Sequence record: MT360681
Strand: one strand, 5' to 3'
DNA from: Shigella phage 2019SD1
Length of the DNA stretch: 53,145 nucleotides
The stretch's first letter is position 1; the number at the start of each line of letters is the position of its first letter. The position numbers were made by a program, and so were the translations under genes. Below, piece after piece: positions 9,633-44,774 of this stretch. The notes below the pieces were generated by a model. It was not told where the DNA came from. It did not search any database and worked only from the letters and a program-made list of their open reading frames with translations.

Positions 9633-12286
9633 CGCTTGGGGTTGATGTATCTCAACTCAACAATGCTGTAAAGTCTTTGCAGCAATTCAAAAAGGCAAAC
9701 GACGACGCAAAGGGAAGCGTTGAGAACTTTGTTGATTCAGAGGTTGTTGCAAGGCAAAGAGCTAAACAATTGGCTGAGGAATTGGCGAAGCAGAAACAGG
9801 AATTTAAAGCAATTCAGTCTGCAATAGATCCAACAGCCAGCAAGATGGATAAGTTGCGTCAGGCTGCGACACAGCTTGATGCACTATGGAAAAAGGAATT
9901 GTGCCGGATGATACATTCTTTGAATCCGGATGATACATTCTTTGAATTAGGTTCAATTCTTGAGACACAGCAAAACAAGCTGATCGCAACGAAAAAGGCG
10001 CTAACAGAAGAAGGCCGAGCGGCGATTGAGGAAGCAAAGAATAAAGCGGGGCAGAGGCTGAGGCCAGAAAGTTCATTGCGGCATTACAGGCACAAGCAGA
10101 CGCAGCGGAAAAACAAAATCAGAGCTTGTAGAAATGAGAGCCGCACAACTTGGAGTAGAGCCGCACAACTTGGAGTTAGTGCTGAGGCAGCGCCATTTAT
10201 TGCAAAAATGAAGGAGCAGGAAAAACAAGCCTCAAAACTTGGCGTTTCTATGGGGCAGTACAAGCAAGCAATGGCGCAATTACCAATGCAGATCACTGAC
10301 GTTGTTACTTCTCTTGCTTCAGGAATGCCAGTATGGATGGTCGCAATCCAGCAGGGTGGACAGATCAAGGACTCATTCGGTGGTGTTGCGAATACGTTCA
10401 AAGCACTAATGACATTTGTCACGCCGTTAAGTGTAGGAATGACGGCGCTGACTGGTGCTCTTGGTTATGCTGCATATAATGCATACAAAACAAATGCACA
10501 ACTGAAGGAGATCACAAAACCGTTCAGGGGTAACTGGTCTTTCTGGTCAGAACAATACGCAGGCTTGACGCTTGGGGTTGATGTATCTCAACTCAACAAT
10601 GCTGTAAAGTCTTTGCAGCAATTCAAAAAGGCAAACGACGACGCAAAGGGAAGCGTTGAGAACTTTGTTGATTCAGAGGTTGTTGCAAGGCAAAGAGCTA
10701 AACAATTGGCTGAGGAATTGGCGAAGCAGAAACAGGAATTTAAAGCAATTCAGTCTGCAATAGATCCAACAGCCAGCAAGATGGATAAGTTGCGTCAGGC
10801 TGCGACACAGCTTGATGCACTATGGAAAAAGGAATTGTGCCGGATGATACATTCTTTGAATCTGCAATTTGCGAAGAACACCTATGAGGATATAGGAAAG
10901 ATCGTAAAAGATGCGAATAAGGATATGGCGGAACGAGCAGCACGCATCGACAGAGAAAACCTTTCCTTAAACAGAGTTCGAGCGGCGCAAGAGGCTTTAA
11001 ACAAAGCCATAGAGGATCAGAAGAACGTAGCAAGGACAGCAGACGAAGAGTTGAAAAACGAGCGGCTGAGAACGTTGAGTTCAGGCGAAAAGAGCTTGAA
11101 GAGGCGAAGAAGGCGCAGCAGCAAAGGAGAAAGTTGGCGGAGTTGTAAAAGCACCAACAGAGCAGCTGCAAAAGAAAAGGCCGAGATAGGCGATCAGATT
11201 GTTTTGCAACAGAGAAAGAACAAGCAATACCGGACGGGCTTAAATTCATTCAGCAAACTTCAGATGCCATTGATGCTAAACTTGCGACAGTCTGGAGCTA
11301 CAGATATGCAAATCAAGCGAGAGCTTGAGTTGAAGAAGTTGCGAACTGATTATGTTGCTGGCGGGGTAGTATCGACGATGAAATTTATCAGCAGATGGAA
11401 GCAAAGCGATATGTACGGCAACGTGCAAGATATTGCAAGCGAGGCGCTCAACGGTCTAACCAACCAAATGGCTACATTCCTTGCAACAGGCAAGGCGAAC
11501 TTTAAGAGCTTCGCAACGTCAATCATCCAAATGATTATCCAGATGATCACGAAGATGGTTATCTTTAATGCCATATCTGGTGCGATTGGCGGTGACACTT
11601 GGACGATTGGAAGCCTTCTTAAAATGTTGGATTTGCAACTGGTGGATACACTGGCGACGGCGGGAAGTATGAGCCAGCAGGTGTTGTCCATAAAGGCGAG
11701 TTTGTCAACGAAGGAGGCCACGAAGCGGATCGGAGTTGGAAATCTTTACAAAATGATGCGCGGTTATGCAAATGGCGGCGTTGTTGGTGGCACTTCATAC
11801 ACTGGCGGCGGAATTTCATCAGGAGCAACAAACCTTAATATTGGTGGGATTAGCGTTGATATTAACAACGGAAACGATCCAAAAGGGTTGGAGACTGGCG
11901 TAAAAATGATTTTCACTGATATGATTAAGCGTTCCTGTACGCAGGGTGGGGAAGTTTACGAATTTGTTATGTCTAAGCGGGGTGATAGTGAAACTACGAA
12001 GGAGGCCACGAAGCGGATCGGAGTTGGAAATCTTTACAAAATGATGCGCGGTTATGCAAATGGCGGCGTTGTTGGTGGCACTTCATACACTGGCGGCGGA
12101 ATTTCATCAGGAGCAACAAACCTTAATATTGGTGGGATTAGCGTTGATATTAACAACGGAAACGATCCAAAAGGGTTGGAGACTGGCGTAAAAATGATTT
12201 TCACTGATATGATTAAGCGTTCCTGTACGCAGGGTGGGGAAGTTTACGAATTTGTTATGTCTAAGCGGGGTGATAGTGAAACTTGA
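9608..12286 (+). CDS. Tail tape measure protein; contains displaced duplicate (9612-9925 = 10548-10862), tandem 288-bp C-terminal duplication (11708-11995, 11996-12283) and short tandem repeats near 9900 and 10140
   Basis: 892-aa ORF with hydrophobic segment ..[21 protein letters not shown].. typical of tape measure proteins; position after chaperone genes. Confidence 0.7.
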
Positions 12287-15150: not shown

Positions 15151-18100
15151 GTGGCTGAAAATATGATAACGGGCAGTAAGGGTGGATCATCAAAACCTTA
15201 TGTTCCGAAAGAGATGGAAGATAACCTGATCTCAATCAACAAAATCAAAATCCTTCTTGCCGTTTCCGATGGCGAGTGCGATCCAAATTTTACACTTCGC
15301 GATCTGTATCTTGATGATGTTCCGGTAATTGCAGACGACGGAACTGTTAACTACCGTGGTGTGAAAGCTGAATTTCGACACGGAACACAAACGCAAGATT
15401 ACATCCGGGGTTTACTGACACATCAAGCGAAGACGCTGGCGCGTGACATTACGACGACAAATCCTTATGTAATTTCTGTAACCAACAAAACATTATCGGC
15501 TATCAGAATAAAAATTCTAATGCCAACAGGCATTAAGCAAGAGGATAACGGCGATCTTGTAGGTGTTAAGGTCACTTATGCTGTTGATATGGCTGTTGAC
15601 GGAGACTCTTACAAAGAAGTATTGATAGACACCATCGAAGGTAAAACGCGTTCCGGTTACGACAGAAGTCGAAGGATTGACCTTCCGGCATTTAATGATC
15701 GCGTATTGCTTAGGGTTAGAAGGGTTACGGCAGACAGCACATCATCTCGCGTTACTGATCTGATTAAGCTACAAAGTTACGCTGAGGTTATTGATGCAAA
15801 ATTCCGTTACCCTCTGACTGGTCTTGTATACGTTGAATTTGACAGTGAGTTGTTCCTAACCAGATCCACGCTGGCGCGTGACATTACGACGACAAATCCT
15901 TATGTAATTTCTGTAACCAACAAAACATTATCGGCTATCAGAATAAAAATTCTAATGCCAACAGGCATTAAGCAAGAGGATAACGGCGATCTTGTAGGTG
16001 TTAAGGTCACTTATGCTGTTGATATGGCTGTTGACGGAGACTCTTACAAAGAAGTATTGATAGACACCATCGAAGGTAAAACGCGTTCCGGTTACGACAG
16101 AAGTCGAAGGATTGACCTTCCGGCATTTAATGATCGCGTATTGCTTAGGGTTAGAAGGGTTACGGCAGACAGCACATCATCTCGCGTTACTGATCTGATT
16201 AAGCTACAAAGTTACGCTGAGGTTATTGATGCAAAATTCCGTTACCCTCTGACTGGTCTTGTATACGTTGAATTTGACAGTGAGTTGTTCCTAACCAGAT
16301 CCCGAGAGTATCACGGTTCATGGGATGGTACTTTCAAGAAAGCGTGGTCGAACAATCCGGCGTGGGTTCTTTATGACATTATCACAAACCAGCGATACGG
16401 ATTAGATCAGCGAGAACTTGGCGTGCAGGTTGACAAATGGAGTCTTTACGAAGCGGCGCAATACTGCGATCAGAAAGTGCCTGACGGAAAAGGCGGCACA
16501 GAGCCGCGTTATCTATGCGACGTTGTTATTCAAAGCCAGATTGAGGCTTATCAGCTTATTCGTGATATTTGCTCAATCTTCCGAGGCATGAGCTTTTGGA
16601 ATGGGGAGAGCCTGTCAATCGTCATTGATAAGCCGCGCGATCCGTCGTACATCTTCACCAATGACAACGTTGTTGATGGCGATTTTCAGTACACAACAGC
16701 AAGCGAAAAGAGCATGTACACGCAGTGCAACGTGACGTTCGACGACGAACAAAACATGTATCAACAGGACGTGGAGGGCGTATTCGACACTGAGGCAGCA
16801 TTGCGCTTTGGATACAATCCAACAAGCATAACAGCTATCGGATGTACACGCAGGAGTGAGGCTAATCGGCGCGGTAGATGGATACTAAAACCAACTTGCG
16901 CAGCACTACGGGATACTAAAACCAACTTGCGCAGCACTACGGTAAACTTTGCTACTGGACTGGAAGGCATGATCCCATCAATAGGTGATGTTATCGCGGT
17001 GTCAGATAACTTTTACAGCAGCAACCTGAAATTAAACCTTTCAGGGCGCGTGATGGAAGTTTCCGGCTTGCAGGTGTTCGTCCCGTTTAAGATTGACGCG
17101 CGACCGGTGATTTCATTATCATCAACAAGCCTGACGGAAAGCCAGTTAAGCGCACAATCTCAAAGGGTTGTGTCGTGGGATAAAGTACCTTACGCATCGC
17201 TGTATGAAATGCAATGGCGAAAAGGTGATGGCAACTGGCTGAATACACCACAGACCGCAAACAAAGAAATTGAGGTTGAAGGTATTTATTCAGGCAACTA
17301 CCGGCCAAACACTTCATTGTCGGATGCGGTTAAGTTAACTGGCGCGCCGGGCTCCCCACCTTACCAGTCAGCGAAGCTGTCACAATTCTTGACCGGGCGA
17401 TGTAGAACCGGAAGCGGAAACAGATCTCACCCTTACCGGCCAAACACTTCATTGTCGGATGCGGTTAAGTTAACTGGCGCGCCGGGCTCCCCACCTTACC
17501 AGTCAGCGAAGCTGTCACAATTCTTGACCGGGCGATGTAGAACCGGAAGCGGAAACAGATCTCACCCTTACCGGTTTGGCATTCGTGTTAAGTGGGGTAT
17601 GCCAGAAGGGAGCGGAGACACGGCATACATTGAGCTTCACCAGTCGCCAGATGGAACAGCGGAAAACTCAAGCCTGTTAACGCTGATACCATACCCACAA
17701 TATGAATATTGGCACGGTACGCTTCCGGCTGGTCATGTTGTATGGTATCGAATCAGAAGCGTGGACAGGATCGGCAATGTTTCCGGTTGGACGGATTTTG
17801 TTCGCGGCATGGCTTCAGATGATGTTGAGGCTGTTTTAGGCAATATTCTTGATAAGATTTTTGATACAGAAGCAGGAAAGGATCTGAAAGAGAATGCCAT
17901 TGATAGCGCAAACAAAATCAAGGATCAGGCGCAAAGCATCATTCAAAACGCATTGGCGAATGATGCAGACGTTAGGATCATGAGGAAGGAAAACGGAAAA
18001 CGCAAAGCCGAGTTTAGGCAATCAATCCAATTGATCGCAAGTGAAACTGAGGCGCGCGTTACCGCAATGACGCAACTCAAGGCTGAATTTGACGAGGAAA

Positions 18101-25337: not shown

Positions 25338-27494
25338 GTGATTGGTGATAACGCTCATAACAGGATGTTTTATTTTCTCATACCGGGACGTCGGGTTGGT
25401 CCTTTTGATAGTGTTGGTGCTAATACGATTATTTACTCGCCAGACGGATCTTATAGGTTGGTTATCAGAGATGACGGATTACTAGTTTATCAGAAAGGTG
25501 ACGGAACTGAAACCAAGCCATTTGAAATTGCGACTGGTGGGACTGGGGCAACTGATGCAGCAGGTGCTCGCAATAATCTTGGGCTTGGCAGCTATACACC
25601 ACTCATTCGCCCCGGTGCAACAATCTTTTTCATTGATGCACCGTTTCAAGCGGCTGTGATTGGTGATAACGCTCATAACAGGATGTTTTATTTTCTCATA
25701 CCGGGACGTCGGGTTGGTCCTTTTGATAGTGTTGGTGCTAATACGATTATTTACTCGCCAGACGGATCTTATAGGTTGGTTATCAGAGATGACGGATTAC
25801 TAGTTTATCAGAAAGGTGACGGAACTGAAACCAAGCCATTTGAAATTGCGACTGGTGGGACTGGGGCAACTGATGCAGCAGGTGCTCGCAATAATCTTGG
25901 GCTTGGGACTGGGCAAGACGTTCAATTTAAGAGCATTACGGCTACAGACGGCGATATTCTAGTTCCGCAAACTCACGTTGTAGGATGTAAAACTAATACT
26001 GGCGGTAACAAAAATATCTATCTGACGAACTTACCGGAGAATCAACTTCAGGTGGGTGGGACTGGCGCTCAATCTGCAAATAACGCCGCTGAAACTGCAA
26101 AAACGGCGCTGTTACGGCGCGAAATGAGGCTGAGGAATTTGCTAAAAGCCTTAATGCTGAAAATCTACCATGTATTGCTGGGCGACGCTCAAGGTTATAT
26201 CACTGGATACGATACGAAATGGCGAGAGCAATTAACACTCATTCGCCCCGGTGCAACAATCTTTTTCATTGATGCACCGTTTCAAGCGGCTGTGATCAGT
26301 GAAGTTATCAGCGATACACAAATCCGCGCTATCACAACTGGCGGCGCTGAAATTGGGCGGAGCAACTACATTATTTTGCTGCATGACTCAATCACTGTTG
26401 ATGGCCCGGCGCAAGATGTTGCGGAAACTCTGCGTTACTATCAAAGCAAAGAAACTCAGATCGAGGAAGCTATTGAATTTTTCAAAAACTTTGATCTAAA
26501 ACAGTTGCAAGATCTGGCTAATCAGGTTAAAGGTGATGCAGAGAAAACAGCCAATGATCGTGCTGCTACTGAACAACTGAAAAACGACACTCAACATATA
26601 AAGGATTCTGCTGTTGCTGAAACAAACCAGATTAAAGCAGACACTAACGCAATCAAGGCGCAAACACAACAGATTAAAGATTCTGCGATAACGGAAGTTA
26701 ATTCCGCACGCGATCAAGGTGTTTTAGCTGTAAACCAGACTAAAGATCAGGCTGTTTCAGAAATGAATCAGATAAAGGGTGATGTTTCGAATCTGAAAAC
26801 GAAGCTATTTCAGCAAGGGATTCAGCCCAGCAATACATGGCAATGGACGCTCAAGGTTATATCACTGGATACGATACGAAATGGCGAGAGCAATATCAGT
26901 GAAGTTATCAGCGATACACAAATCCGCGCTATCACAACTGGCGGCGCTGAAATTGGGCGGAGCAACTACATTATTTTGCTGCATGACTCAATCACTGTTG
27001 ATGGCCCGGCGCAAGATGTTGCGGAAACTCTGCGTTACTATCAAAGCAAAGAAACTCAGATCGAGGAAGCTATTGAATTTTTCAAAAACTTTGATCTAAA
27101 ACAGTTGCAAGATCTGGCTAATCAGGTTAAAGGTGATGCAGAGAAAACAGCCAATGATCGTGCTGCTACTGAACAACTGAAAAACGACACTCAACATATA
27201 AAGGATTCTGCTGTTGCTGAAACAAACCAGATTAAAGCAGACACTAACGCAATCAAGGCGCAAACACAACAGATTAAAGATTCTGCGATAACGGAAGTTA
27301 ATTCCGCACGCGATCAAGGTGTTTTAGCTGTAAACCAGACTAAAGATCAGGCTGTTTCAGAAATGAATCAGATAAAGGGTGATGTTTCGAATCTGAAAAC
27401 GAAGCTATTTCAGCAAGGGATTCAGCCCAGCAATACACATGCGTTTTCTCCCGTGTTGCATGTTAATGTCAATGCAGATAATAGCATTTGCTAA
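25338..27494 (+). CDS. Long tail fibre protein; 318-bp tandem duplication (25271-25588, 25589-25906), 600-bp tandem duplication (26297-26838 and 26897-27438) and frame disruption near 26100
   Basis: N-terminal ..GGTGATDAAGARNNLGLG.. motif common to phage tail fibres; long coiled-coil-like repeats rich in A/T/N/Q/K. Confidence 0.6.
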   Translation: MIGDNAHNRMFYFLIPGRRVGPFDSVGANTIIYSPDGSYRLVIRDDGLLVYQKGDGTETKPFEIATGGTGATDAAGARNNLGLGSYTPLIRPGATIFFIDAPFQAAVIGDNAHNRMFYFLIPGRRVGPFDSVGANTIIYSPDGSYRLVIRDDGLLVYQKGDGTETKPFEIATGGTGATDAAGARNNLGLGTGQDVQFKSITATDGDILVPQTHVVGCKTNTGGNKNIYLTNLPENQLQVGGTGAQSANNAAETAKTALLRREMRLRNLLKALMLKIYHVLLGDAQGYITGYDTKWREQLTLIRPGATIFFIDAPFQAAVISEVISDTQIRAITTGGAEIGRSNYIILLHDSITVDGPAQDVAETLRYYQSKETQIEEAIEFFKNFDLKQLQDLANQVKGDAEKTANDRAATEQLKNDTQHIKDSAVAETNQIKADTNAIKAQTQQIKDSAITEVNSARDQGVLAVNQTKDQAVSEMNQIKGDVSNLKTKLFQQGIQPSNTWQWTLKVISLDTIRNGESNISEVISDTQIRAITTGGAEIGRSNYIILLHDSITVDGPAQDVAETLRYYQSKETQIEEAIEFFKNFDLKQLQDLANQVKGDAEKTANDRAATEQLKNDTQHIKDSAVAETNQIKADTNAIKAQTQQIKDSAITEVNSARDQGVLAVNQTKDQAVSEMNQIKGDVSNLKTKLFQQGIQPSNTHAFSPVLHVNVNADNSIC

Positions 27495-31206: not shown

Positions 31207-31303
31207 TGCAATATGTGAATCACATCATGCCACCATCGCGTGTGACTCACCGCAAGACTAGCAAGGAGAAGATAATTTGTACAAGAAGGAGTTTAATTAT
31301 GGC

Positions 31304-31808
31304 AATGACTGATAAAGGCGATTATCTGGAGTTTTACGAAAGAGATCCGACGGATACGCTAAAGGAGGAATCACACCAGATCGGGGCGTTTCAATGGTTA
31401 ACTTATGCTCATCCTGAATTTCTTGCCGGCATACGAAAACGAGGGCGACAAGGGATCGCCACCGCAATGATGGATCAGCAAGCAGGACTCGTTAAGGGAG
31501 TAAGTGATTTCATCATCCTGATTGGATTAAAGGCCGTTATCCGTTCGCGGCAAGCAATGACTGATAAAGGCGATTATCTGGAGTTTTACGAAAGAGATCC
31601 GACGGATACGCTAAAGGAGGAATCACACCAGATCGGGGCGTTTCAATGGTTAACTTATGCTCATCCTGAATTTCTTGCCGGCATACGAAAACGAGGGCGA
31701 CAAGGGATCGCCACCGCAATGATGGATCAGCAAGCAGGACTCGTTAAGGGAGTAAGTGATTTCATCATCCTGATTGGATTAAAGGCCGTTATCCGTTCGC
31801 GGCAATAG
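31304..31808 (+). CDS. Hypothetical nuclease-like protein (VRR-NUC-like, tentative); exact tandem 252-bp duplication (31303-31554, 31555-31806)
   Basis: AGGAG RBS plus ATG at 31304; ..GLVKGVSDFIILIG.. loosely resembles VRR-NUC motif. Confidence 0.3.
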
Positions 31809-31900: not shown

Positions 31901-32653
31901 ATGGCGCAATCCTTCGCGCCTGTTTTAACAAAAGTGCTATTTCATCATGTATTCTACAGCGATCATGAATTGCTTATATCCGTATGTTACGGCAGCGAAT
32001 CCGCCAAGCTCACGCACGCGGCGCAAGAAGGCTTTAGTAAAGAAACTGAAGTGACATTTGAACAAATAGAACGAGAAACATTCATTGGCAATGCTCTTGC
32101 TACTGGAGGCCATTACCGTGCCGTTAAACCAAATCAATATTATAAAGTCACTGGCAACCGCTATAACGGCAGCAACACGCCTGACATTGTGCGCGATTTG
32201 TGGTCCACGCCGTCAGAGGTTGTCGAATGGATGGAAAGCGAATACGGTGATTATGACATCGACGCGGCGGCAAGCAAAGAAAACGCTGTATGTGAAAAAT
32301 TCTACAGCAAGGAAACAAATTGCTTAAAGCGTTGGTGGGGTAGTAATAAGCATATCTGGCTGAATCCACCGTACAGCAATATAACGCCTTTCGTTAAGAA
32401 AGCGATTGAGCAAATGGAGCACAATAACCAGATCGACATTCTGTTGCCTTGCGACACATCGACAGGATGGTTTTATGAGGCACAACAGAAAGCAGCGGAA
32501 ATCATCTGGATCACTGGCGAAGTTTACCGGAGGACGGAACAGAATATTCCCGCACAGGACGCCTTGCTTTCACTTCAGCGCTTACAGGTAAACCAGTGCA
32601 GGAAACAACAAAGGAAGCGTTATTTTCATCATGCGCGAACTGAAAGAAGGTGA
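31901..32653 (+). CDS. dam: DNA N6-adenine methyltransferase (phage Dam family); C-terminus probably frame-disrupted
   Basis: ..WSTPSEV..DIDAAAS..HIWLNPPYS.. motifs (NPPY catalytic motif) as in phage Dam-type methyltransferases. Confidence 0.6.
   Translation: MAQSFAPVLTKVLFHHVFYSDHELLISVCYGSESAKLTHAAQEGFSKETEVTFEQIERETFIGNALATGGHYRAVKPNQYYKVTGNRYNGSNTPDIVRDLWSTPSEVVEWMESEYGDYDIDAAASKENAVCEKFYSKETNCLKRWWGSNKHIWLNPPYSNITPFVKKAIEQMEHNNQIDILLPCDTSTGWFYEAQQKAAEIIWITGEVYRRTEQNIPAQDALLSLQRLQVNQCRKQQRKRYFHHARTERR
31921..31942 (-). promoter_or_regulatory. Conserved promoter-like motif copy, leftward orientation, inside start of Dam ORF
   Basis: TGTTTTAACAAAAGTGCTATTT. Confidence 0.3.
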
Positions 32654-32968
32654 GCAGCAGAAAACGCGATACGTTAAGATCAGCGACATTTGCCCGTCTG
32701 TGGCAGAGCGTCGAGCAAGAAAGCGGAGTTAATATCATGCAGAAAGAAAGAAGCGTTTATTTAAATGAAACTGGCGAGTGGTTGCTATTTCGCGCTATGG
32801 TTTGCGAAGCGCTTGATAAAACGATTTCATAAAACCGCTATTAGGTTGCGATCCGTGGGAGTTTACAAGCGCGCTTGACATGAGCTTTGAGGAAACAAGA
32901 AAACTACCGCTTGAAAATGGCATGAGCAGATCGGTAAAGACTTGCAAGAGTTTTACGAATCCGCGTCA

Positions 32969-32990
32969 AAATAGCACTTTTGTTAAAACG
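32969..32990 (+). promoter_or_regulatory. Conserved promoter-like motif copy
   Basis: AAATAGCACTTTTGTTAAAACG followed by hairpin GCCCGG..CGGGC and CATAAT. Confidence 0.5.
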
Positions 32991-33043
32991 CCCGGCCTTG
33001 TGTCGGGCATAATTATTTCATCAAAACGAACAAGAGGAAAACA

Positions 33044-33223
33044 AAATGGTTGTTTACGATCCACGCGCTTTTAAAATTGCCCAAGAAGTTTCACGCGAAT
33101 CTGTTGCTGGCGGTTCTGCTAACGGCTATCAGTTTGATTGGTCGGCAGCAATGACCTTGCTTAAGGTTGCATATGGTCACGCGCCAATTAAAACAGCGGA
33201 GGAATATTATAAGCATGAAGGTT
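33044..33223 (+). CDS. Small hypothetical protein
   Basis: AGAGGAAAACAAA plus ATG, downstream of promoter motif copy at 32969-32990. Confidence 0.3.
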
Positions 33224-33457
33224 GAACAAGGTAGGCAGGCCGTATGGGATCACGCAAAGGAATGTGGGATCTCTGAAGACATAGCCGGGATAGCAAAATA
33301 TTTTGATATTGCTGACATAAGCATTATAAGCGGCGACAAAATGACTTTTCTCAATGAACGACCGCGCAAAATGCATCGCGTCCCAGCAATACCAACAAAG
33401 ATTGATTTCAAAGAGGCTATGGCGAAAATTCGCGAGCCGCGCAAATACTACAAATGA
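33215..33457 (+). CDS. Small hypothetical protein
   Basis: ORF with GGAGGA upstream. Confidence 0.3.
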   Translation: MKVEQGRQAVWDHAKECGISEDIAGIAKYFDIADISIISGDKMTFLNERPRKMHRVPAIPTKIDFKEAMAKIREPRKYYK

Positions 33458-33555
33458 GGATTATTATCATGTGGCGTTTGTTACTTTTGCCCTTACCTGT
33501 TATGATGGCGATCTCTATTGTGTATGTTGTCATAATGAGATAAGGAGAATTTTTG

Positions 33556-33733
33556 ATGAAGCAAATCAAAATCACAGATGAACAATTTATCAATGAGCGC
33601 AAGCAGGAAAGACATATAAGCAGATCGCTAATGAGTATGGCATGAACGTTCGAAGCATTGAGCGCCGCGCGGCACGATTAGCAAAGAAGGAGAGATTGAC
33701 ACAAAAGGTGCGCCGGATTTGGGATTGCTCGTG
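33556..33733 (+). CDS. Small HTH-like DNA-binding protein (one frame disruption)
   Basis: AAGGAGAA RBS plus ATG; alternative frame reads ..GKTYKQIANEYGMNVRSIERRAARLAKKE.. Confidence 0.3.
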
Positions 33734-33806
33734 AATCTGTTTTACGACGCGCCAACGGTGAAGAAGTAAGATTCAGATAATTGAAGGCAACCACGACCAA
33801 AGCGGC

Positions 33807-34997
33807 ATGAGATGGACAATCACCACTCGCGACAAAGAACAGCTAGAAGCATTAATGCAGGCCGCTATGGATGCATTTAGCGAAGAAGTTCCGCGACTTG
33901 ATCCGCAACCGGAATCACAAAAGGATTATAGCGAGACGTTATCACTGTATCCGATCTTTGATATGCACCGGGCGCAATGGCGCATAAGCATGAATGCGGC
34001 GAGAACTGGGATACAGCAACAGCAGAGCGCGAATAATTTCATTGATTATTCCATCCAGTGCGCGCCGGATAGCGAAAAGGCTGTTTTGCTGATTGGTGGT
34101 GACATGCTGCATAGTGACGGCACGGAAGCGGTGACACCTGCAAGCGGTCACGTATTGGATCAAGATAGTCGATACGCAAAACTTGTTTATGTTGCCATCC
34201 GGTCAGTGCGTCGAGCAATAGCAAAGCTGTTATCAAAACATAAAACGAGATGGACAATCACCACTCGCGACAAAGAACAGCTAGAAGCATTAATGCAGGC
34301 CGCTATGGATGCATTTAGCGAAGAAGTTCCGCGACTTGATCCGCAACCGGAATCACAAAAGGATTATAGCGAGACGTTATCACTGTATCCGATCTTTGAT
34401 ATGCACCGGGCGCAATGGCGCATAAGCATGAATGCGGCGAGAACTGGGATACAGCAACAGCAGAGCGCGAATAATTTCATTGATTATTCCATCCAGTGCG
34501 CGCCGGATAGCGAAAAGGCTGTTTTGCTGATTGGTGGTGACATGCTGCATAGTGACGGCACGGAAGCGGTGACACCTGCAAGCGGTCACGTATTGGATCA
34601 AGATAGTCGATACGCAAAACTTGTTTATGTTGCCATCCGGTCAGTGCGTCGAGCAATAGCAAAGCTGTTATCAAAACATAAAACGATCTGGTTGCGCGCA
34701 GCAATGGCGGCAGCATATGAGAATGAGCCGCGAGTGCATGTTGATGTTTCTCCGCGAGTAGTTCATCACACGCAATATGGCAAAACATTCCCGCATACCA
34801 TCATCTGGTTGCGCGCAGCAATGGCGGCAGCATATGAGAATGAGCCGCGAGTGCATGTTGATGTTTCTCCGCGAGTAGTTCATCACACGCAATATGGCAA
34901 AACATTCCCGCATACCATCATGGGCACACTATCCGCAAACCTGAAACATTGGCGGCAAAGATGCATACGCTGCGCGCGAGTACATAGCACTATATAA
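33807..34997 (+). CDS. Hypothetical protein; exact tandem 438-bp duplication (33810-34247, 34248-34685) and 117-bp tandem duplication (34686-34802, 34803-34919)
   Basis: 396-aa ORF composed largely of repeated units. Confidence 0.3.
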   Translation: MRWTITTRDKEQLEALMQAAMDAFSEEVPRLDPQPESQKDYSETLSLYPIFDMHRAQWRISMNAARTGIQQQQSANNFIDYSIQCAPDSEKAVLLIGGDMLHSDGTEAVTPASGHVLDQDSRYAKLVYVAIRSVRRAIAKLLSKHKTRWTITTRDKEQLEALMQAAMDAFSEEVPRLDPQPESQKDYSETLSLYPIFDMHRAQWRISMNAARTGIQQQQSANNFIDYSIQCAPDSEKAVLLIGGDMLHSDGTEAVTPASGHVLDQDSRYAKLVYVAIRSVRRAIAKLLSKHKTIWLRAAMAAAYENEPRVHVDVSPRVVHHTQYGKTFPHTIIWLRAAMAAAYENEPRVHVDVSPRVVHHTQYGKTFPHTIMGTLSANLKHWRQRCIRCARVHSTI

Positions 34998-35012
34998 ATC
35001 ATCAATTTAATT

Positions 35013-35040
35013 GGGCGAGGCATTTTGCTTCGCCCTTTTT
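35013..35040 (+). terminator. Hairpin terminator upstream of lysis genes
   Basis: GGGCGAG-GCATTTTGC-TTCGCCC followed by TTTTTATT. Confidence 0.4.
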
Positions 35041-35112
35041 ATTCCTTTTGTGCGTTCAATGGTTAGGATACAGTCAATTAATTGTTGACTTTTATCTACA
35101 GGAGATCTAATC

Positions 35113-35327
35113 ATGAAAGATTTTTAAACGCTGTAACTTCAGGCACTGGCGGCGCGTCAATCACTGGCGCTGTAACTGGTCAAACAACTATTGCAATAGC
35201 CAGCTTGGTTTTGATGGCTGCATTTGGTATGTGGGGCGCTTATCTTCGTTGGCGTGATAGTAAGGCGCTACGTGACGCTCTTGAATGCGGTGATATTAAG
35301 AAAGCTATTGAGATCAGAGGTAAATAA
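35113..35327 (+). CDS. Holin (start codon present but frame interrupted after 4 codons)
   Basis: CAGGAGATCTAATC plus ATG; translation ..GGASITGAVTGQTTIAIASLVLMAAFGMWGAYLRWRDSK.. with transmembrane segment and charged C-terminus. Confidence 0.45.
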
Positions 35328-35935
35328 TGAGTATAAAACAAAGAAACGTACACACAGAGAGAGTGCGATGCGCTACTGGCAAAGCATATCAAGATCGCAA
35401 AGGATGAAGTTGATAAACGTGTAAAGGTTGATATCCCTGATACAATGACCGCTGCGGCTTTTGGCGTTGCTCTTGCTCTTACTTCTCCATTACTGGAGGA
35501 AATAGAAGGAGTAAAACATAAACCGTACAAAGATATTGCTGGAATATGGACGGTTTGCGCCGGAATAACTGGACCTGACGTAATGCCGACCGCTGCGGCT
35601 TTTGGCGTTGCTCTTGCTCTTACTTCTCCATTACTGGAGGAAATAGAAGGAGTAAAACATAAACCGTACAAAGATATTGCTGGAATATGGACGGTTTGCG
35701 CCGGACGCGCAGCGATGTATTCATTCACATACAATGCTGGCACTGGTGCTTTTAGAAATTCAACCATGCTTAAGCTGATTAATAACGGTCGTTATATGGA
35801 AGCGTGCAATCAGTTATGGCGATGGACAAAATACACCAATCCAAAACAGGAAAGAAAGAAACGTCTAAAGGACTGCGCAACCGCCGCGCGGTGGAATTTA
35901 AATATTGCATTAAGGATCTGTAATCATGAGAAAGT
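35327..35935 (+). CDS. Endolysin, GH24 lysozyme-like; tandem ~141-bp duplication (35447-35587, 35588-35710) and frame disruption near N-terminus
   Basis: ..LEEIEGVKHKPYKDIAGIWTVCAG.. matches the E-G..Y.D..G..T.G.G lysozyme catalytic region; C-terminal ..FTYNAGTGAFRNSTMLKLINNGRYMEACNQLWRW.. Confidence 0.55.
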
Positions 35936-36026
35936 TATCAGCAATCGCGATCGCTGTTATTTAATATGCGTGGTTGTGTTAATTGTGCTGATTTGTCTTT
36001 ACTGGAGAGAAGAAAAGGAGGCTTAA
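35927..36026 (+). CDS. Small membrane protein (possible spanin fragment)
   Basis: ATG at 35927 overlapping end of endolysin; hydrophobic stretch; frame interrupted. Confidence 0.2.
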
Positions 36027-36040
36027 CGCCTCCTTTGTTA
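36015..36040. terminator. Bidirectional rho-independent terminator between endolysin region and convergent minus-strand gene
   Basis: GGAGGC-TTAAC-GCCTCC followed by TTTGTTA. Confidence 0.55.
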
Positions 36041-36280
36041 TTCAATTCTCTTTACAGTAACCAACAAAACGCCGTCATCATCACACAAATTATGCTCTGA
36101 TATGTTAAACGCTCGCATGTCAGAATGAATGAGCGTTAACATTGCGTGCATGAAGTCTTCATGTGAGATTTGAGAAGTAGCGCAAAACTTAAGAATTTCA
36201 TCTATCAGTTTACTTTCCATGATTTTCATGATAACCAAGTTTAGCCTCTGCTTGTTCTCTTGCCATAATTGCATCATCAA
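36038..36280 (-). CDS. Hypothetical protein (80 aa)
   Basis: Minus-strand ORF ending at the bidirectional terminator. Confidence 0.4.
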   Translation of the reverse strand: MMMQLWQENKQRLNLVIMKIMESKLIDEILKFCATSQISHEDFMHAMLTLIHSDMRAFNISEHNLCDDDGVLLVTVKRIE

Positions 36281-36324
36281 TGCTTGAAAATAATCCTAAA
36301 TGAACACTCTTACCTTTATCATAT

Positions 36325-36978
36325 ATGGTTGCATGCCATTTTTTCTTTCTTCCTCCAGCACACCCCTATTCCATTGTCATATATAAATATTTTATTCCAA
36401 TCGATTGGAATAAAATATTTATATATGACAATGGAATATTGTGGGAAATGCACAATGGAAAAATACCAGAAGGAATGGAGATAGATCATATATGGCACAA
36501 TAGGTGGGATAACAGGATTGAAAATTTAAGGCTTGCATCAAGATTAGAGAACAGCAAAAACGTATCTCTACTAAAAAGAAATAAATCTGGTAGGGTTGGG
36601 GTGTGCTGGAGGAAGAAAGAAAGGTGGAGAAACAGAAGGGGAAAAGCAAAGCACGGAAGCGTTGCTGGATGTGTAGATAAAAATGGCTATGTAAGAATAA
36701 GGTATAATGGTGTATTGCTTTTGGCACATAGGATAATATGGGAAATGCACAATGGAAAAATACCAGAAGGAATGGAGATAGATCATATATGGCACAATAG
36801 GTGGGATAACAGGATTGAAAATTTAAGGCTTGCATCAAGATTAGAGAACAGCAAAAACGTATCTCTACTAAAAAGAAATAAATCTGGTAGGGTTGGGGTG
36901 TGCTGGAGGAAGAAAGAAAAAATGGCATGCAACCATATACATATCTTTTCCTTAGAGCTTTTATTTGTTGTCTATTAA
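36325..36978 (+). CDS. HNH homing endonuclease with AP2-like DNA-binding domain; internal ~180-297-bp duplication (36442-36620 approx = 36739-36917)
   Basis: ..NGYVRIRYNGVLLLAHRIIWEMHNGKIPEGMEIDHIWHNRWDNRIENLRLASRLENSKN.. classic HNH motif; ..KSGRVGVCWRKK.. AP2-like. Confidence 0.65.
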   Translation: MVACHFFFLPPAHPYSIVIYKYFIPIDWNKIFIYDNGILWEMHNGKIPEGMEIDHIWHNRWDNRIENLRLASRLENSKNVSLLKRNKSGRVGVCWRKKERWRNRRGKAKHGSVAGCVDKNGYVRIRYNGVLLLAHRIIWEMHNGKIPEGMEIDHIWHNRWDNRIENLRLASRLENSKNVSLLKRNKSGRVGVCWRKKEKMACNHIHIFSLELLFVVY

Positions 36979-36996
36979 CATTTGACGTAAACAGTT

Positions 36997-37500
36997 CTTC
37001 ATCGCTCATTTCTCCGATCCGTAAAACATCCCTAACCCATTCGTTTTGCATACCTTCCGGGCTGTAAAGTTCAAACGAGAAAGGTCGATTTGCGGATCCT
37101 TTCTTACACCAGAACTTTCCATCAACTCCATCTGCTGCATTCAGGAACTGAACTGAGCGAGCAATGTTGCGCGCCAACTTTCCAACAACATCAACATCAT
37201 TGCCAAGAGAAATTACAGGGTAGCGATCATTTCCGTTATTAACATCATTAACCTCACCCCAAAAGCTGGACGATTGACGGTATCCGTTTGCCTGAATGGA
37301 CACGCGCACCGGAGACAATCCTTGTGCATCAGCTAATTCGATAATTTGTTTTGGTGTTAGTTTGTTGGTTTCAAACGAAAAATTCGAGTTGATGGAAAGT
37401 TCTGGTGTAAGAAAGGATCCGCAAATCGACCTTTCTCGTTTGAACTTTACAGCCCGGAAGGTATGCAAAACGAATGGGTTAGGGATGTTTTACGGATCGG
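36997..37500. repeat. Fold-back structure: ~95-bp perfect inverted repeats (36997-37090 and 37405-37500) flanking a ~315-bp segment that codes on the minus strand
   Basis: 37405-37500 is the exact reverse complement of 36997-37090; best reading frame of the enclosed segment is on the minus strand whereas the continuing gene is on the plus strand. Confidence 0.8.
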
Positions 37501-38747
37501 AGAAACTTGGACGCTTCACGGTTGAGTATCACGGAACGGATCAGCCGACCGCTCTTTATGTTGTCACAAGCCAGCCTCCTTCAACTGGTAAATCTGCCGT
37601 TAACAGCCCGGCACTTGCTCCAATGGTTGCAGAAGTAGAAAGAATTAACGATCAGCGAAAGAAGGAAAGAAAAAGATTCAGGCAAAGTTGGCAGGTCTTG
37701 CAAAAGAGACTTGGACGCTTCACGGTTGAGTATCACGGAACGGATCAGCCGACCGCTCTTTATGTTGTCACAAGCCAGCCTCCTTCAACTGGTAAATCTG
37801 CCGTTAACAGCCCGGCACTTGCTCCAATGGTTGCAGAAGTAGAAAGAATTAACGATCAGCGAAAGAAGGAAAGAAAAAGATTCAGGCAAAGTTGGCAGGT
37901 CTTGCAAAAGAGAAGCAAAACATACATTAGCGCCGCCAACGCTTCTGGCTATGCTGGTGATGATGCTGAAATGGGTAAACTAATCGAGATCATCACTCGA
38001 CACGGCAAGGCTAATAAGGGGATCTTGAATGTGCGCGCCATATATGAGGCTGCACGAAAAGTTAAGCCGTTTGTTGGTCAGGCTGGCGTAATGAAGCGTA
38101 TGGAAACGCAACTGCTGCCGATGCTTGAAGAAAGAAATTATATTTGTGTGATTAATGGCGTTGTTTTTGTAAATCCAACATTGCTGGGGAGTGAATCAAA
38201 CATCCAGCTTAAGATCAGCAAATCAGCAATGCGAGTTCTTAACATGGCTCGTCAGGAGATGGAACCGCACCTTGCTGATGGAGGAAAGTATTCGCATACA
38301 ATGCTGCGCGGCGCGCTTGGCAAAATGGATAAGCAGGTGATCAGGATTGCTTCAGTTTTGCACACTATCCGCAACTGGTTTAATCGGCGGATACCCTCAA
38401 AAGTCGAAAGAGATCTGAAAGCATGGGATCACGGTCATGTTTCTATAGCTCGTGCAAACGCTGACAACAATATGAGTTTTAAAGCTCTTGGCTGTATGGC
38501 GGTAATTGCCCGTGATGAAACAATCAATGCCATCATGGATGCAGGATCGCGCGGTATCGGTGTGAGTGAGCGTTATTTGCTTGTGCGTGAGGAATCATTT
38601 TGTGACATCGTTTTCCCTGTGTCCGACACCACGCCGGAAGGACTTGCAAGAATCAACAATCGCCGGGGTAACTTTGCTGTGATTTCAGACGAGGCAACGA
38701 GTATTAACAGCCTTATTGATGATAACTCCTTTTTGATGCGGCAATAA
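37500..38747 (+). CDS. Putative replication protein with P-loop-like motif (primase/helicase-type, tentative); tandem 204-bp duplication (37506-37709, 37710-37913); native N-terminus probably lies in the inverted segment upstream
   Basis: ..VVTSQPPSTGKSAV.. Walker A-like; long ORF in replication region. Confidence 0.3.
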   Translation, partial: EKLGRFTVEYHGTDQPTALYVVTSQPPSTGKSAVNSPALAPMVAEVERINDQRKKERKRFRQSWQVLQKRLGRFTVEYHGTDQPTALYVVTSQPPSTGKSAVNSPALAPMVAEVERINDQRKKERKRFRQSWQVLQKRSKTYISAANASGYAGDDAEMGKLIEIITRHGKANKGILNVRAIYEAARKVKPFVGQAGVMKRMETQLLPMLEERNYICVINGVVFVNPTLLGSESNIQLKISKSAMRVLNMARQEMEPHLADGGKYSHTMLRGALGKMDKQVIRIASVLHTIRNWFNRRIPSKVERDLKAWDHGHVSIARANADNNMSFKALGCMAVIARDETINAIMDAGSRGIGVSERYLLVREESFCDIVFPVSDTTPEGLARINNRRGNFAVISDEATSINSLIDDNSFLMRQ

Positions 38748-38769
38748 TACCGCACCAATGCTACCCGCA

Positions 38770-38788
38770 TTTAACAAAAATGCTATTT
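38770..38788 (-). promoter_or_regulatory. Conserved promoter-like motif copy (variant), leftward orientation
   Basis: Minus-strand reading AAATAGCATTTTTGTTAAA followed by stem-loop TGCGG-TATTATT-CCGCA. Confidence 0.4.
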
Positions 38789-39128
38789 GATCCGCTCTAT
38801 GCTAACTAAGATTTTTCTGGTTCCCTTGCGCTATGGCAATGCGCGGTTACGGAATCAGCAAAATCAAAATAAAGTGATTTGTGGTAAGAAAGACCAATCA
38901 GCCACCCAACCATCGTTTTCTTTATTGGCCTGACTATATCGCCGTGATTGAAGGTTTTGTTGCCGAATGAGTCACCTTATAGCGATATTCTGGTAACGCT
39001 TTCCTTCTTTGAAATGCTTTTTGCACGGGATCTTGTGATCTACAAAGGTGCATTTAATTGTTTTGTTTTGATATGACGATAGTCAGACTCAACAGCGTTT
39101 TGCCACTTACTACCCTTTGTAATGTTCT

Positions 39129-39239
39129 TTACCCGAATTGTTCCAACTCGATCACATCATCGCTACCAGAAATTTTTTCGTATACGGTTTTATAGCGCCC
39201 GCTCATCAAAACGTTGGTTTTATTGCAGATAACTTTCAT
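39129..39239 (-). CDS. Small hypothetical protein (36 aa) or N-terminal remnant of a disrupted gene
   Basis: GGAGAAATAAACG plus ATG (minus strand) 50 bp downstream of promoter motif copy at 39293-39314. Confidence 0.25.
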   Translation of the reverse strand: MKVICNKTNVLMSGRYKTVYEKISGSDDVIELEQFG

Positions 39240-39292
39240 CGTTTATTTCTCCTTTCGTTTCGGTGAAGTGATTATGCCGTGCTTTTACACCG

Positions 39293-39314
39293 CTTTTAAC
39301 AAAAGTGCTATTTT
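39293..39314 (-). promoter_or_regulatory. Conserved promoter-like motif copy
   Basis: Minus-strand reading AAATAGCACTTTTGTTAAAAG then stem CGGTG..CACCG enclosing CATAAT, RBS and ATG. Confidence 0.55.
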
Positions 39315-39386
39315 GCGTTTGCTTCAAATACTGCGCGAGCAAAACCGCGCGGAGTGAGGGAGCGTAATTGTTTTGTTCTGGCAGAC

Positions 39387-39845
39387 TTACCGCATACTGC
39401 GCGAGGCCCTCATCATTGGATAACGGCTTGCGTTCCGGTTCGATAAATCCGTTGCCGCACCAGATAGCCGTCCTTTTGTGTAGCCATCCTTTAGCGGCAT
39501 CTTGTGGTGAAAAGATCCATCGGATTCGTCAAGGTAGTTACCAAAGTCGCGCGGATTGAAATAAAAATCAGGCTTGCGCCATAGCGTTGATAGTCGGCCT
39601 ACAGGATTCTCAGCCATCCATGGAACACCGAAATGATTCCCGACAGTTTCAACCATGATTGCATTTTTGAGAGCAACCTTAATATCATCATCGCTTCGCG
39701 CGTGCTTGATTCCTGATTGGGCAAACATGGTGCAGTCTGGAAACCCAAATACAATATCTGGTTTTGGAATATCCATATTACTGATTCTTTCAATGAAATT
39801 TTCATCAATCCACATATTCACATAATGCAGATTTTCATGCCTCAT
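39387..39845 (-). CDS. Hypothetical protein with loose resemblance to C5-cytosine methyltransferase motifs IV and VI (tentative)
   Basis: ..DIVFGFPDCTMFAQSG.. about 40 aa before ..WMAENPVGRL..; no motif I found. Confidence 0.2.
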   Translation of the reverse strand: MRHENLHYVNMWIDENFIERISNMDIPKPDIVFGFPDCTMFAQSGIKHARSDDDIKVALKNAIMVETVGNHFGVPWMAENPVGRLSTLWRKPDFYFNPRDFGNYLDESDGSFHHKMPLKDGYTKGRLSGAATDLSNRNASRYPMMRASRSMR

Positions 39846-39978
39846 CTTAATGAAATATTCGCCGTGATTGCCTTCATCAGAAAACTTCCAACCCCAAAGA
39901 ACATTACTTGCAGATAACTTTCATCGTTTATTTCTCCTTTCGTTTCGGTGAAGTGATTATGCCGTGCTTTTACACCGC

Positions 39979-40000
39979 TTTTAACAAAAGTGCTATTTTG
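39979..40000 (-). promoter_or_regulatory. Conserved promoter-like motif copy inside 102-bp displaced duplicate (39225-39326 = 39911-40012)
   Basis: Identical to copy at 39293-39314. Confidence 0.4.
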
Positions 40001-40377
40001 CGTTTGCTTCATTAAAGCAATAGCATTGATAGCCAGCCTTCGCATATTCAAGCAGCATGATTCCAGATCCATCAAACATTGAGTAAGCAACTTAACAATC
40101 ATCGTTGATCTGCAAATGCAGCGCCGCGTAAAGTAATCGTGCCAATTCATTTCATCACCTTAAAACGGAAAGCATCGCGGGCAGTTAGGATCGAAGTTGC
40201 ATCCGCAATCATTAACAATCATCGTTGATCTGCAAATGCAGCGCCGCATTCATTATCCATATCCATTTCACCAAGCGCATCATCAAGCGTCCTGATTTTA
40301 TATGCTACTTCAAGCGCGGCCTCTTTATTCAGCCCAGCATCTTCCGCTTTTGCAGTCGCTCAAAAATCCATCCCGCT

Positions 40378-43631: not shown

Positions 43632-44774
43632 TTGTGGTGCTTAAGCGTGGATAACATCAAGTATCCGATCACGTTCCACACGGTTGGTAACTCAACTATT
43701 CGATTCACATCTCGCGACAATGGCGTTTATAGCGACGGTCAGAAATCAGAGTTGAAAGTTGATTTCTTTGTCAATGGTCACAACAAATTCAATCCGCACA
43801 ACGAAAAAGATAAGGTGTACTACGTGGAAGATATTACAAAACACTTGTTTGGCGAAACTCCATTCGGCGGCGGGAAGACGTCAATTCAACAAATCATTGA
43901 CGATCAGATCCGCAAGGCAGCCGTTGAAATGAAAGCGCCCGGAGGCTGGCGTATTGATAAGGGCGCCTTTACCATTCAAGAAATCGTAACGCAGGGCGCG
44001 ATTGAAGACATGCCGCTTGGCGCTTCAATCATCGGCATCAAAGACGACAACGGCGACTGGCAGGATGTTTCATTCCTGTTAAGCAGATCGAAGTACACGA
44101 CGACCTGTTTTGCCTCCCGGCGCATCATGGCAGCTACAAGGGCAAAGCCTTTGCCGCAGAGCTTGACATCAAGCGCGGAACGATTGTTAAGTGGAAGGCA
44201 AAAGTGTAAAGATAACATCAAGTATCCGATCACGTTCCACACGGTTGGTAACTCAACTATTCGATTCACATCTCGCGACAATGGCGTTTATAGCGACGGT
44301 CAGAAATCAGAGTTGAAAGTTGATTTCTTTGTCAATGGTCACAACAAATTCAATCCGCACAACGAAAAAGATAAGGTGTACTACGTGGAAGATATTACAA
44401 AACACTTGTTTGGCGAAACTCCATTCGGCGGCGGGAAGACGTCAATTCAACAAATCATTGACGATCAGATCCGCAAGGCAGCCGTTGAAATGAAAGCGCC
44501 CGGAGGCTGGCGTATTGATAAGGGCGCCTTTACCATTCAAGAAATCGTAACGCAGGGCGCGATTGAAGACATGCCGCTTGGCGCTTCAATCATCGGCATC
44601 AAAGACGACAACGGCGACTGGCAGGATGTTTCATTCCTGTTAAGCAGATCGAAGTACACGACGACCTGTTTTGCCTCCCGGCGCATCATGGCAGCTACAA
44701 GGGCAAAGCCTTTGCCGCAGAGCTTGACATCAAGCGCGGAACGATTGTTAAGTGGAAGGCAAAAGTGTAAATAG
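43632..44774 (+). CDS. Hypothetical early protein; exact tandem ~561-bp duplication (43650-44210, 44211-44771); C-terminus frame-disrupted
   Basis: 380-aa ORF consisting of two identical 187-aa units. Confidence 0.35.
   Translation: MWCLSVDNIKYPITFHTVGNSTIRFTSRDNGVYSDGQKSELKVDFFVNGHNKFNPHNEKDKVYYVEDITKHLFGETPFGGGKTSIQQIIDDQIRKAAVEMKAPGGWRIDKGAFTIQEIVTQGAIEDMPLGASIIGIKDDNGDWQDVSFLLSRSKYTTTCFASRRIMAATRAKPLPQSLTSSAERLLSGRQKCKDNIKYPITFHTVGNSTIRFTSRDNGVYSDGQKSELKVDFFVNGHNKFNPHNEKDKVYYVEDITKHLFGETPFGGGKTSIQQIIDDQIRKAAVEMKAPGGWRIDKGAFTIQEIVTQGAIEDMPLGASIIGIKDDNGDWQDVSFLLSRSKYTTTCFASRRIMAATRAKPLPQSLTSSAERLLSGRQKCK

Follow-up and report, generated by a model that had tools for sequence, protein, structure and literature searches.

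The 53,145-nucleotide sequence of Shigella phage 2019SD1 (MT360681; this whole stretch is called the window below) is best explained as that of a T1-like phage with two standard methyltransferase genes. These are a T1-type dam gene for an N6-adenine methyltransferase acting on GATC (31901..32732, plus strand, from ATG to the true stop) and a gene for a compact Dcm-like C5-cytosine methyltransferase (39308..40102, minus strand). Both genes are interrupted in the window, in all likelihood only by artefacts, and the complete loss of CCWGG sites (W is A or T) is ascribed to miscalls at methylated sites. We put the probability of this reading at roughly 0.85. What was established directly is the identity of the genes and the exact lesions in them, the error signature across the genome, and the origin of the block duplications after sequencing; these are described in turn.

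The best matches of the window are Tempevirinae (T1-like phages of the Drexlerviridae), with approximately 90-95% DNA identity to phages of the genera Hanrivervirus (herni, slyngel, JakobBernoulli) and Warwickvirus (BEK7, BEK12A, JLBYU19). Both methyltransferase genes occupy equivalent positions in these relatives. In intact genomes, a helicase gene is followed by a VRR-NUC gene and a gene for a 233-residue "Dam-like N6-adenine methyltransferase", and a 236-residue "Dcm-like C5 cytosine methyltransferase" is encoded about 6 kb past dam on the opposite strand. Likewise, the two genes of the window are separate loci. The approximately 7 kb between them contain small open reading frames (ORFs) and genes for a phosphoesterase, holin/endolysin, an HNH endonuclease and a helicase, all unrelated to the methylation genes. 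The sequence-only reading that preceded this analysis had placed both functions in a single span, 31901-39845, and thus lumped two distant genes with their unrelated neighbours. Neither of the two ORFs delimited in it is a gene, as the real spans are 31901-32732 and 40102-39308. The sequence of an IMG/VR entry, IMGVR_UViG_2974632794_000001, occurs letter for letter within the window and contains the same lesions. The pair of a dam gene and a compact Dcm-like gene is standard for Tempevirinae: both genes are annotated in many of these phages, functional data have been published for both types of enzymes, and the biology is ordinary and already known.

The ORF at 31901-32653 matches the Pfam family Dam, PF05869 (E-value 1.6e-49, 168.2 bits with a cut-off of 28.1), and the NCBIfam family phage_N6A_met, TIGR01712 (134.7 bits with a cut-off of 97.05). 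It contains the motif DIDAAAS at 32255-32275 and the catalytic-type motif NPPYS at 32363-32377, on which the initial prediction of a Dam-type enzyme had been based. When the Dam protein of JakobBernoulli is used as a tblastn query, 100% of its 233 amino acids are recovered, split over three frames. When the three frames are joined, the product has 95.7% identity to this protein over all 233 residues, and 66% identity to Dam of phage T1 (YP_003925.1, M.EcoT1Dam type) over 218 amino acids (E-value 2.7e-112). A phmmer search of PDB with the Dam protein returned noise only, and no solved structure of the Dam family was found by it. Sequence similarity thus supports the prediction that this gene encodes a Dam-type N6-adenine methyltransferase.

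The complete Dam domain is not contained in any single ORF. The ORF at 31901-32653 covers positions 1-118 of the 169 positions of PF05869, compared to positions 1-152 in an intact relative, and the remainder is encoded in two other frames after two one-nucleotide deletions. Moreover, this ORF is chimeric. Its residues 1-45 are spurious and come from an inverted block directly downstream of the dam ATG (31904..32035), identified by a minus-strand blastn match with 97% identity. The block consists of the 3' end of the VRR-NUC gene and intergenic DNA, which normally sit just upstream of dam; its length is 135/132 nucleotides in the window and 136 nucleotides in the reference (positions 2819-2954 of the JakobBernoulli segment). 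The in-frame core of Dam (32036..32527) corresponds to reference residues 2-165, with 95% identity over 166 amino acids. At 32527..32530, the reference CCAGG, a Dcm site, is replaced by CCGG. This one-nucleotide deletion belongs to the class of CCWGG miscalls. At 32601..32602, the reference GGG is contracted to GG, as in the class of homopolymer deletions. The last 43 codons and the stop are in the third reading frame (32601..32732); all 44 positions, counting the stop, are 100% identical. Residues approximately 211-250 of the ORF are products of frameshift read-through.

The Dcm-like gene is a Warwickvirus-type allele. Its DNA is 91-92% identical to the genes of BEK7 and BEK12A (88-92% across BEK7, BEK12A and JLBYU19), and outside the insert described below 155 of 163 residues of the protein are identical to those of BEK12A. 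The probable start codon is the ATG at 40102, as suggested by the family consensus MxKV(V/A)(W/Y)S; this assumes a contraction of AAA to AA at 40093-40092. The minus-strand ORF at 39387-39845 is the central fragment of the gene. It matches the family phrog_757, "DNA methyltransferase", with an E-value of 8e-38 (1.4e-77 and 6.8e-85 for two intact alleles), and contains both FPDCTMFAQSG, with the catalytic-cysteine motif FPDCT at 39743-39729, and ENPVG at 39611-39597. The sequence-only reading had offered a weak C5-cytosine call for this ORF. The call is right and stronger than was thought, given the phrog_757 match and a homolog from phage K42 that makes 5-methylcytosine (5mC). The reason for its weakness, the supposed lack of motif I, does not hold: a motif I-like FDGSG, the candidate S-adenosylmethionine (AdoMet) binding loop, is encoded at 40062..40076 on the same strand and in the same frame, displaced by the insert.

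This insert (39881..40009), delineated by alignment to BEK12A, is artefactual. It consists of 129 nucleotides (43 codons), contains four stop codons and follows codon 31 or so. It is a copy of the 3' end of the Dcm-like gene itself with downstream DNA (a duplicate of approximately 39220-39326), followed by a relocated 27-nucleotide piece at 39907-39881, which encodes VLWGWKF, was taken from the 3' part of the gene and has 28 nucleotides in the reference. At the original site of the relocated piece there is a 12-nucleotide filler, CTCGCGCAGTAT (39394..39405), which duplicates a stretch closer to the 3' end. A further lesion revealed by the same alignment is a contraction of five A to four at 39474..39477, causing a frameshift exactly at the conserved substrate-binding motif T-K-[K/R]-T (TKR is encoded). 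The C-terminal segment GKSARTKQLRSLTPRGFARAVFEANAK with the stop codon, containing the motif IX-like RSLTPRGFARA, is in the third reading frame (39308..39391), as seen from tblastn and from conservation in the family. Thus the window does not contain an uninterrupted gene of approximately 228-236 codons, and we attribute the insert, the relocated piece, the filler and the frameshift to artefacts.

The Dcm-like family includes 607 homologs. The cysteine of F-P-[D/S/P]-C-T, the motif E-N-P-V-G and K-[K/R]-T are invariant, D-G-S-G is nearly invariant, and R-S-L-T-P-R-G-F-A-R-A is conserved. One member has been characterized, Dcm of K42, a Drexlerviridae phage 95% identical to Bas06 of the BASEL collection, with a dcm gene of 711 bp (bioRxiv 10.1101/2023.08.16.553469). 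Superposition with DNMT3A was used to identify C82, E128 and K175/K176 as its catalytic and substrate-binding residues, and these were mutated (bioRxiv 10.1101/2023.08.16.553469). They map exactly onto invariant family columns, namely the cysteine, the glutamate of ENPVG and K-[K/R]. Since these residues fall on invariant columns of the alignment, the assignment of the family to C5-cytosine methyltransferases, as a compact atypical member of the fold, is sound.

Structure comparison agrees with this assignment. The AlphaFold model of the Dcm-like protein has a pLDDT (predicted local distance difference test) score of 87.9, and the fold search is led by C5 methyltransferases: DNMT3B (14.1), the prophage C5 enzyme 3g7u (12.0), DNMT3A (12.0), the C5-carboxymethyltransferase 8yf3 (11.7), M.HhaI (11.0) and M.HaeIII (10.1). 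The listed C5-type matches cover 176-198 of 228 residues, compared to approximately 125-145 for generic Rossmann methyltransferases. Profile libraries are less sensitive. Pfam produced no match for the ORF at 39387-39845, the adjacent ORF at 39842-40150 or the BEK12A allele; the Hanrivervirus allele scored 12.7 bits with PF00145 (E-value 0.085), below the cut-off of 22, and seven of 25 diverse family members match PF00145 weakly (E-values up to 1, the best 3.1e-6). A search of NCBIfam with both Dcm-like alleles gave no match, and the family profile against all PDB sequences gave noise only (E-value 1.3). Hence, of the profile searches proposed initially, the one for Dam succeeded with PF05869 and TIGR01712, and the one for the second enzyme fell short of the PF00145 gathering score.

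These negative results are what one could cite for the view that the ORF at 39387-39845 resembles C5 motifs by chance and is no methyltransferase remnant: the ORF has no Pfam match, and the family has no NCBIfam or PDB match at the level of sequence profiles. The probability of this is practically nil. It is refuted by the phrog_757 match, by 95% identity to intact natural proteins of 228 residues, by the fold search and the weak PF00145 matches in seven of 25 members, and by the experimentally demonstrated production of 5mC by a homolog.

The damage is not restricted to the methyltransferase genes. Most of 39 proteins of a related phage are recovered from the window as pieces in different frames, on different strands or in out-of-order blocks. 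This includes essential genes, such as those of the terminase large subunit, prohead protease, tape measure protein, tail tip, both helicases and the primase, which is in eight pieces distributed over the two strands. No viable phage can be encoded by the sequence in its deposited form. Over approximately 35 kb of the alignment between the window and the reference, there are 124 single-base deletions and only five insertions, and 59 of the deletions are within homopolymer runs of 5-7 nucleotides. The same comparison of a control pair of natural genomes produced one deletion and no insertions. Homopolymer runs of at least six nucleotides occur six times in the window and 65 times in a relative.

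Another type of damage is block rearrangement. The window contains 38 direct and four inverted pairs of repeats of at least 30 nucleotides, nearly all of them 100% identical and mostly tandem; examples are 3665-4067, 11708-12283, 15433-16302, 26295-27437, 31302-31805, 33809-34686 and 43650-44771. The offsets of all 27 direct repeats of at least 100 nucleotides are multiples of three, but only in the error-containing coordinates of the window. Indeed, the tandem units of 201, 219, 189, 288, 189, 435, 213, 252 and 117 nucleotides correspond, in this order, to 202, 220, 190, 289, 190, 436, 215, 256 and 118 nucleotides in the reference, and the reference equivalents of 12 among the 17 fully aligned units have lengths that are not multiples of three. 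The blocks in the methyltransferase genes follow the same pattern (135 and 136 nucleotides in dam, 27 and 28 nucleotides in the Dcm-like gene). As the rule of three is valid only in error-containing coordinates, the copying postdates the base-calling errors. The block duplications are computational in origin and do not exist in the DNA of the phage itself. Possible sources of the codon-multiple duplications are a protein- or codon-aware step of assembly or correction, or a deliberate in silico manipulation. Two other mechanisms were considered. Template switching is unsupported, as microhomology at the junctions is only 0-6 nucleotides, mostly 0-2. A fixed grid of three nucleotides starting from position 1, as in a process with 3-mer tokens, was rejected because unambiguous starts of duplications occur in all three residues modulo 3 and the phase is not constant among the four inverted pairs.

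Both methyltransferase genes are interrupted only by three contig-wide classes of artefacts: single-base deletions in homopolymers, miscalls of CCWGG, and codon-multiple block rearrangements after base-calling. Since the interruptions belong only to these classes, both genes are most likely intact in the real phage. It is very unlikely that they are true pseudogenes, for instance with dcm lost under retron selection and dam decaying. Frameshifts and inserts do occur in both genes of the window, and K42 phages escaping the retron Ec86 had dcm deletions, including a deletion of 1 bp, as well as a promoter-proximal change (bioRxiv 10.1101/2023.08.16.553469). However, lesions of the same types are found in most genes, the essential ones included; the point lesions in both genes (CCAGG to CCGG, GGG to GG, five A to four) fit the global error classes; and their block lesions are multiples of three only in the error-containing coordinates.

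The strongest genome-wide signal is the loss of CCWGG. There are no such sites in the window, where approximately 49 are expected from composition, and 113 in the approximately 95% identical JakobBernoulli genome. Not one of the 73 aligned reference sites is preserved, and the changes are stereotyped and symmetric between strands: CCAGG becomes CCGGG, CCGTG or CC-GG, and CCTGG becomes CCCGG, CACGG or CC-GG. About a third of the changes are deletions of one or two nucleotides inside genes, the others are a few stereotyped substitutions, and many changes shift the frames of genes. Between the relative and the window, the count of CCSGG (S is C or G) rises from five to 54. CCWGG stands out most in an unbiased scan of all 4- to 6-mers (z = -15.3), with nothing but homopolymers after it. 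GATC is conserved in 81% of cases, equal to the baseline for 4-mers (80%), and the error footprint is therefore uninformative on GATC methylation. CACAG (37% conserved, z = -4.8) and AGAC were considered as a possible second modification footprint and rejected, as their changes are heterogeneous ordinary substitutions; conservation of AGACC, CAGAG, GCAC and TCGA near the baseline also counts against a second footprint.

In consensus sequences from default Oxford Nanopore Technologies base-callers, the dominant errors are miscalls of Dcm-methylated CCAGG and CCTGG and errors in homopolymers (Wick et al. 2019, PMC6591954). The same two classes dominate in the window. Unlike the published data, the loss here is total, with none of the 73 aligned sites surviving, and is accompanied by block duplications and inversions that are absent from that paper. 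The absence of CCWGG suggests nanopore miscalls at Dcm-methylated sites, and thus that practically all CCWGG sites in the sequenced DNA contained 5mC.

An alternative explanation is biological: the site might have been purged under pressure from EcoRII-type restriction or retron triggering, in which case its absence says nothing about methylation. Zero sites in 53 kb is indeed how extreme restriction avoidance is expected to look. However, this explanation is highly improbable, as the approximately 95% identical relatives have 113 sites and over-represent the pentamer. All 73 aligned sites have been changed by deletions of one or two nucleotides in genes or by stereotyped substitutions with the accompanying rise in CCSGG, whereas selection would be expected to use synonymous changes and not frameshifts. 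The pattern of altered sites also fits the published nanopore miscall at Dcm sites (PMC6591954). As regards natural frequencies, JakobBernoulli has 113 CCWGG sites with approximately 48 expected from dinucleotide shuffles, and 283 GATC sites with approximately 179 expected. T1, which has no Dcm-like gene, has 83 CCWGG sites.

We infer which enzyme, that of the host or that of the phage, methylated CCWGG from two considerations that favour the phage enzyme, the analogy to T1 Dam and the target of K42 Dcm. Tentatively, at somewhat less than even odds, virtually all packaged CCWGG carried 5mC, host Dcm alone would probably be insufficient on fast-replicating phage DNA, and the divergent Warwickvirus-type allele is itself CCWGG-specific. 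If this is true, this allele shares its target with the Hanrivervirus type despite a different putative recognition stretch, and should trigger the retron Ec86 too. A serious competing possibility, though again not an even bet, is that the footprint was produced by host Dcm alone and that the phage enzyme has another target or is irrelevant to the footprint. Most hosts of the E. coli K-12 type are dcm+, identity of the window allele to the K42/Hanrivervirus enzyme is only 47%, with differences in the stretch presumed to recognize the target, and there is no second depleted motif that could be assigned to the phage enzyme, though not every 5mC context causes miscalls. On the other hand, in the analogous case of Dam, the host enzyme methylates T1 DNA only in part and full methylation requires that of the phage (PMC10470545), a consensus miscall at every CCWGG requires methylation in most molecules, and the characterized family member from K42 is reported to act at CCWGG (bioRxiv 10.1101/2023.08.16.553469).

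Several points weigh against the reading of two ordinary methyltransferase genes broken by artefacts in a CCWGG-methylated phage. Neither of the two phage alleles scanned reaches the PF00145 gathering score, and no solved structure was found for the Dcm-like family by sequence profile. Nanopore as the platform is deduced from the error pattern only. The window allele, with 47% identity to the K42 type and a differing region between motifs VIII and IX, may have another target sequence, and a dcm+ host could supply all CCWGG methylation. Finally, phages are documented to escape naturally from the retron Ec86 when dcm is lost through a 1-bp deletion, so real inactivation of the Dcm-like gene is a slight possibility.

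The activities of both enzymes can be proposed from those of their homologs. By homology to T1 Dam, the phage Dam would transfer the methyl group from AdoMet to N6 of adenine in GATC via the NPPY catalytic loop. DNA of T1 grown in a dam- host is still methylated at G6mATC by the DpnI/MboI criterion, and this methylation is abolished by deletion of T1 dam (PMC10470545). Host Dam gives only partial methylation of T1 DNA, and deletion of T1 dam reduces the burst size to approximately 60% (PMC10470545). The enzyme of the window would then complete the methylation left partial by host Dam and support burst size; it would also block restriction enzymes cutting at GATC. In the Dcm-like enzyme, judging from the fold and the homology to K42 Dcm, the invariant cysteine of F-P-x-C-T would attack C6 of cytosine and the glutamate of E-N-P-V-G would protonate N3, producing 5mC. 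The DNA would thereby be protected from enzymes of the EcoRII type, with triggering of the retron Ec86 as the known price. An anti-restriction role of both methyltransferases may reasonably be supposed. For the Dcm-like enzyme, the consequence documented in the K42 homolog would be the opposite of protection: K42 Dcm deposits 5mC on the retron msDNA (multicopy single-stranded DNA), as detected by liquid chromatography-mass spectrometry, mutation of CCWGG in the msDNA abolishes the effect, and phages escape the retron Ec86 triggered by K42 Dcm through dcm loss (bioRxiv 10.1101/2023.08.16.553469).

These observations have three practical consequences. The contig is unsafe for inference at the level of genes, and ORFs, repeats or pseudogenes that look "novel" in it should be distrusted. 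Its error pattern is informative, as a consensus devoid of CCWGG suggests Dcm-type methylated DNA. The third consequence concerns a gap in profile libraries, as the C5 models of Pfam and NCBIfam miss the compact Dcm-like family despite the C5 fold and the proven activity of the K42 homolog, and annotation by profiles only will under-call it.

The region between the two methyltransferase genes is also heavily affected. The gene of the DUF3987 helicase (37139-38990, on the minus strand in relatives) is present in at least seven blocks, mostly inverted and out of order, with a 204-nucleotide tandem duplication at 37501-37913. This scrambling has created, as an artefact, the long plus-strand ORF at 37296-38747. 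An ORF for an HNH_3 homing endonuclease (36325-36978; PF13392, E-value 1.2e-39) has an internal duplication of approximately 190 nucleotides and a low G+C content (0.36). It is situated between the lysis genes and the helicase, and no corresponding DNA is present in JakobBernoulli and herni. The endolysin gene (35343-35920) is duplicated and rearranged. No match was found in the window for the spanin gene of the relatives (region 35962-36040) or for the 223-residue protein encoded after their tail-tip gene; this may be either a real difference or a deletion by the same artefact.

The contig ends (175-256 and 53065-53145) share a direct repeat of 82 nucleotides with 98.8% identity, and portal-gene sequence is present at each end. 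This suggests a circularly permuted genome or a circular assembly opened inside the portal gene. About 20 unannotated GenBank records of approximately 50 kb titled "Campylobacter phage", with the host given as Campylobacter jejuni (e.g. MG065636, MG065649, MG065657, MG065680, MG065681), are of the T1-like coliphage type and are approximately 89-91% identical to the window; the host label is unexpected for this group.

The Dam proteins of T1 (YP_003925.1) and of the window share the motifs D-(I/L)-D-A-A-A and N-P-P-Y-S (DLDAAAS and NPPYS in T1), and both genomes have the same order of genes: a helicase gene, a VRR-NUC-like gene and dam. The window dam differs in the 132-135-nucleotide inverted block after the ATG and the two one-nucleotide deletions, attributed to artefacts of the record. 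The Dcm-like gene was sought in T1 and is absent, so that the earlier generalization about T1-like phages stands for Dam and does not extend to the second enzyme.

The closest natural alleles of the Dcm-like gene encode the putative DNA cytosine methyltransferases of BEK7, BEK12A and JLBYU19 (228-236 residues), which are intact, unlike the window copy. The neighbours of the gene on both sides in BEK12A and JLBYU19 are homing endonuclease genes, whereas the DNA upstream of the window gene is Hanrivervirus-like. In Warwickvirus phages, a homing endonuclease gene lies directly upstream of the Dcm-like gene and overlaps its start, and BEK12A has a second one approximately 260 nucleotides downstream; such genes were found at 974-1501 and 2440-2961 in one Warwickvirus segment and at 974-1501 in another. 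This arrangement hints at a hotspot of mobile endonucleases and of exchange between alleles. The Dcm-like proteins of K42 and the BASEL Hanrivervirus phages (236 residues, e.g. QXV80729.1 of JakobBernoulli) belong to the same family phrog_757 and are encoded at the same genomic position. However, they are only 47% identical to the window allele (33% in the tblastn alignment), have F-P-P-C-T in place of F-P-D-C-T, and differ in the stretch between K-[K/R]-T and RSLTPRGFARA.

With the canonical enzymes of PF00145 (M.HhaI, M.HaeIII, E. coli Dcm, and the catalytic domains of DNMT3A/B), the Dcm-like family shares the motif I-like FDGSG, the catalytic cysteine, the ENV-type E-N-P-V-G and the motif IX-like R-S-L-T-P-R-G-F-A-R-A. 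The canonical motif numbers are putative assignments, and the spacing of the motifs presumably resembles that in M.HhaI. The Dcm-like protein, with 228 residues, is shorter than the canonical enzymes with more than 300. It has approximately 35 residues between K-[K/R]-T and RSLTPR, where canonical enzymes have their large target-recognition domain. The motif IX-like segment is immediately followed by the end of the protein, and no motif X can be recognized. Finally, the residue preceding the catalytic cysteine is nearly always proline in canonical enzymes, whereas in the Dcm-like family it is aspartate, serine or proline, and most members have no Pro-Cys.

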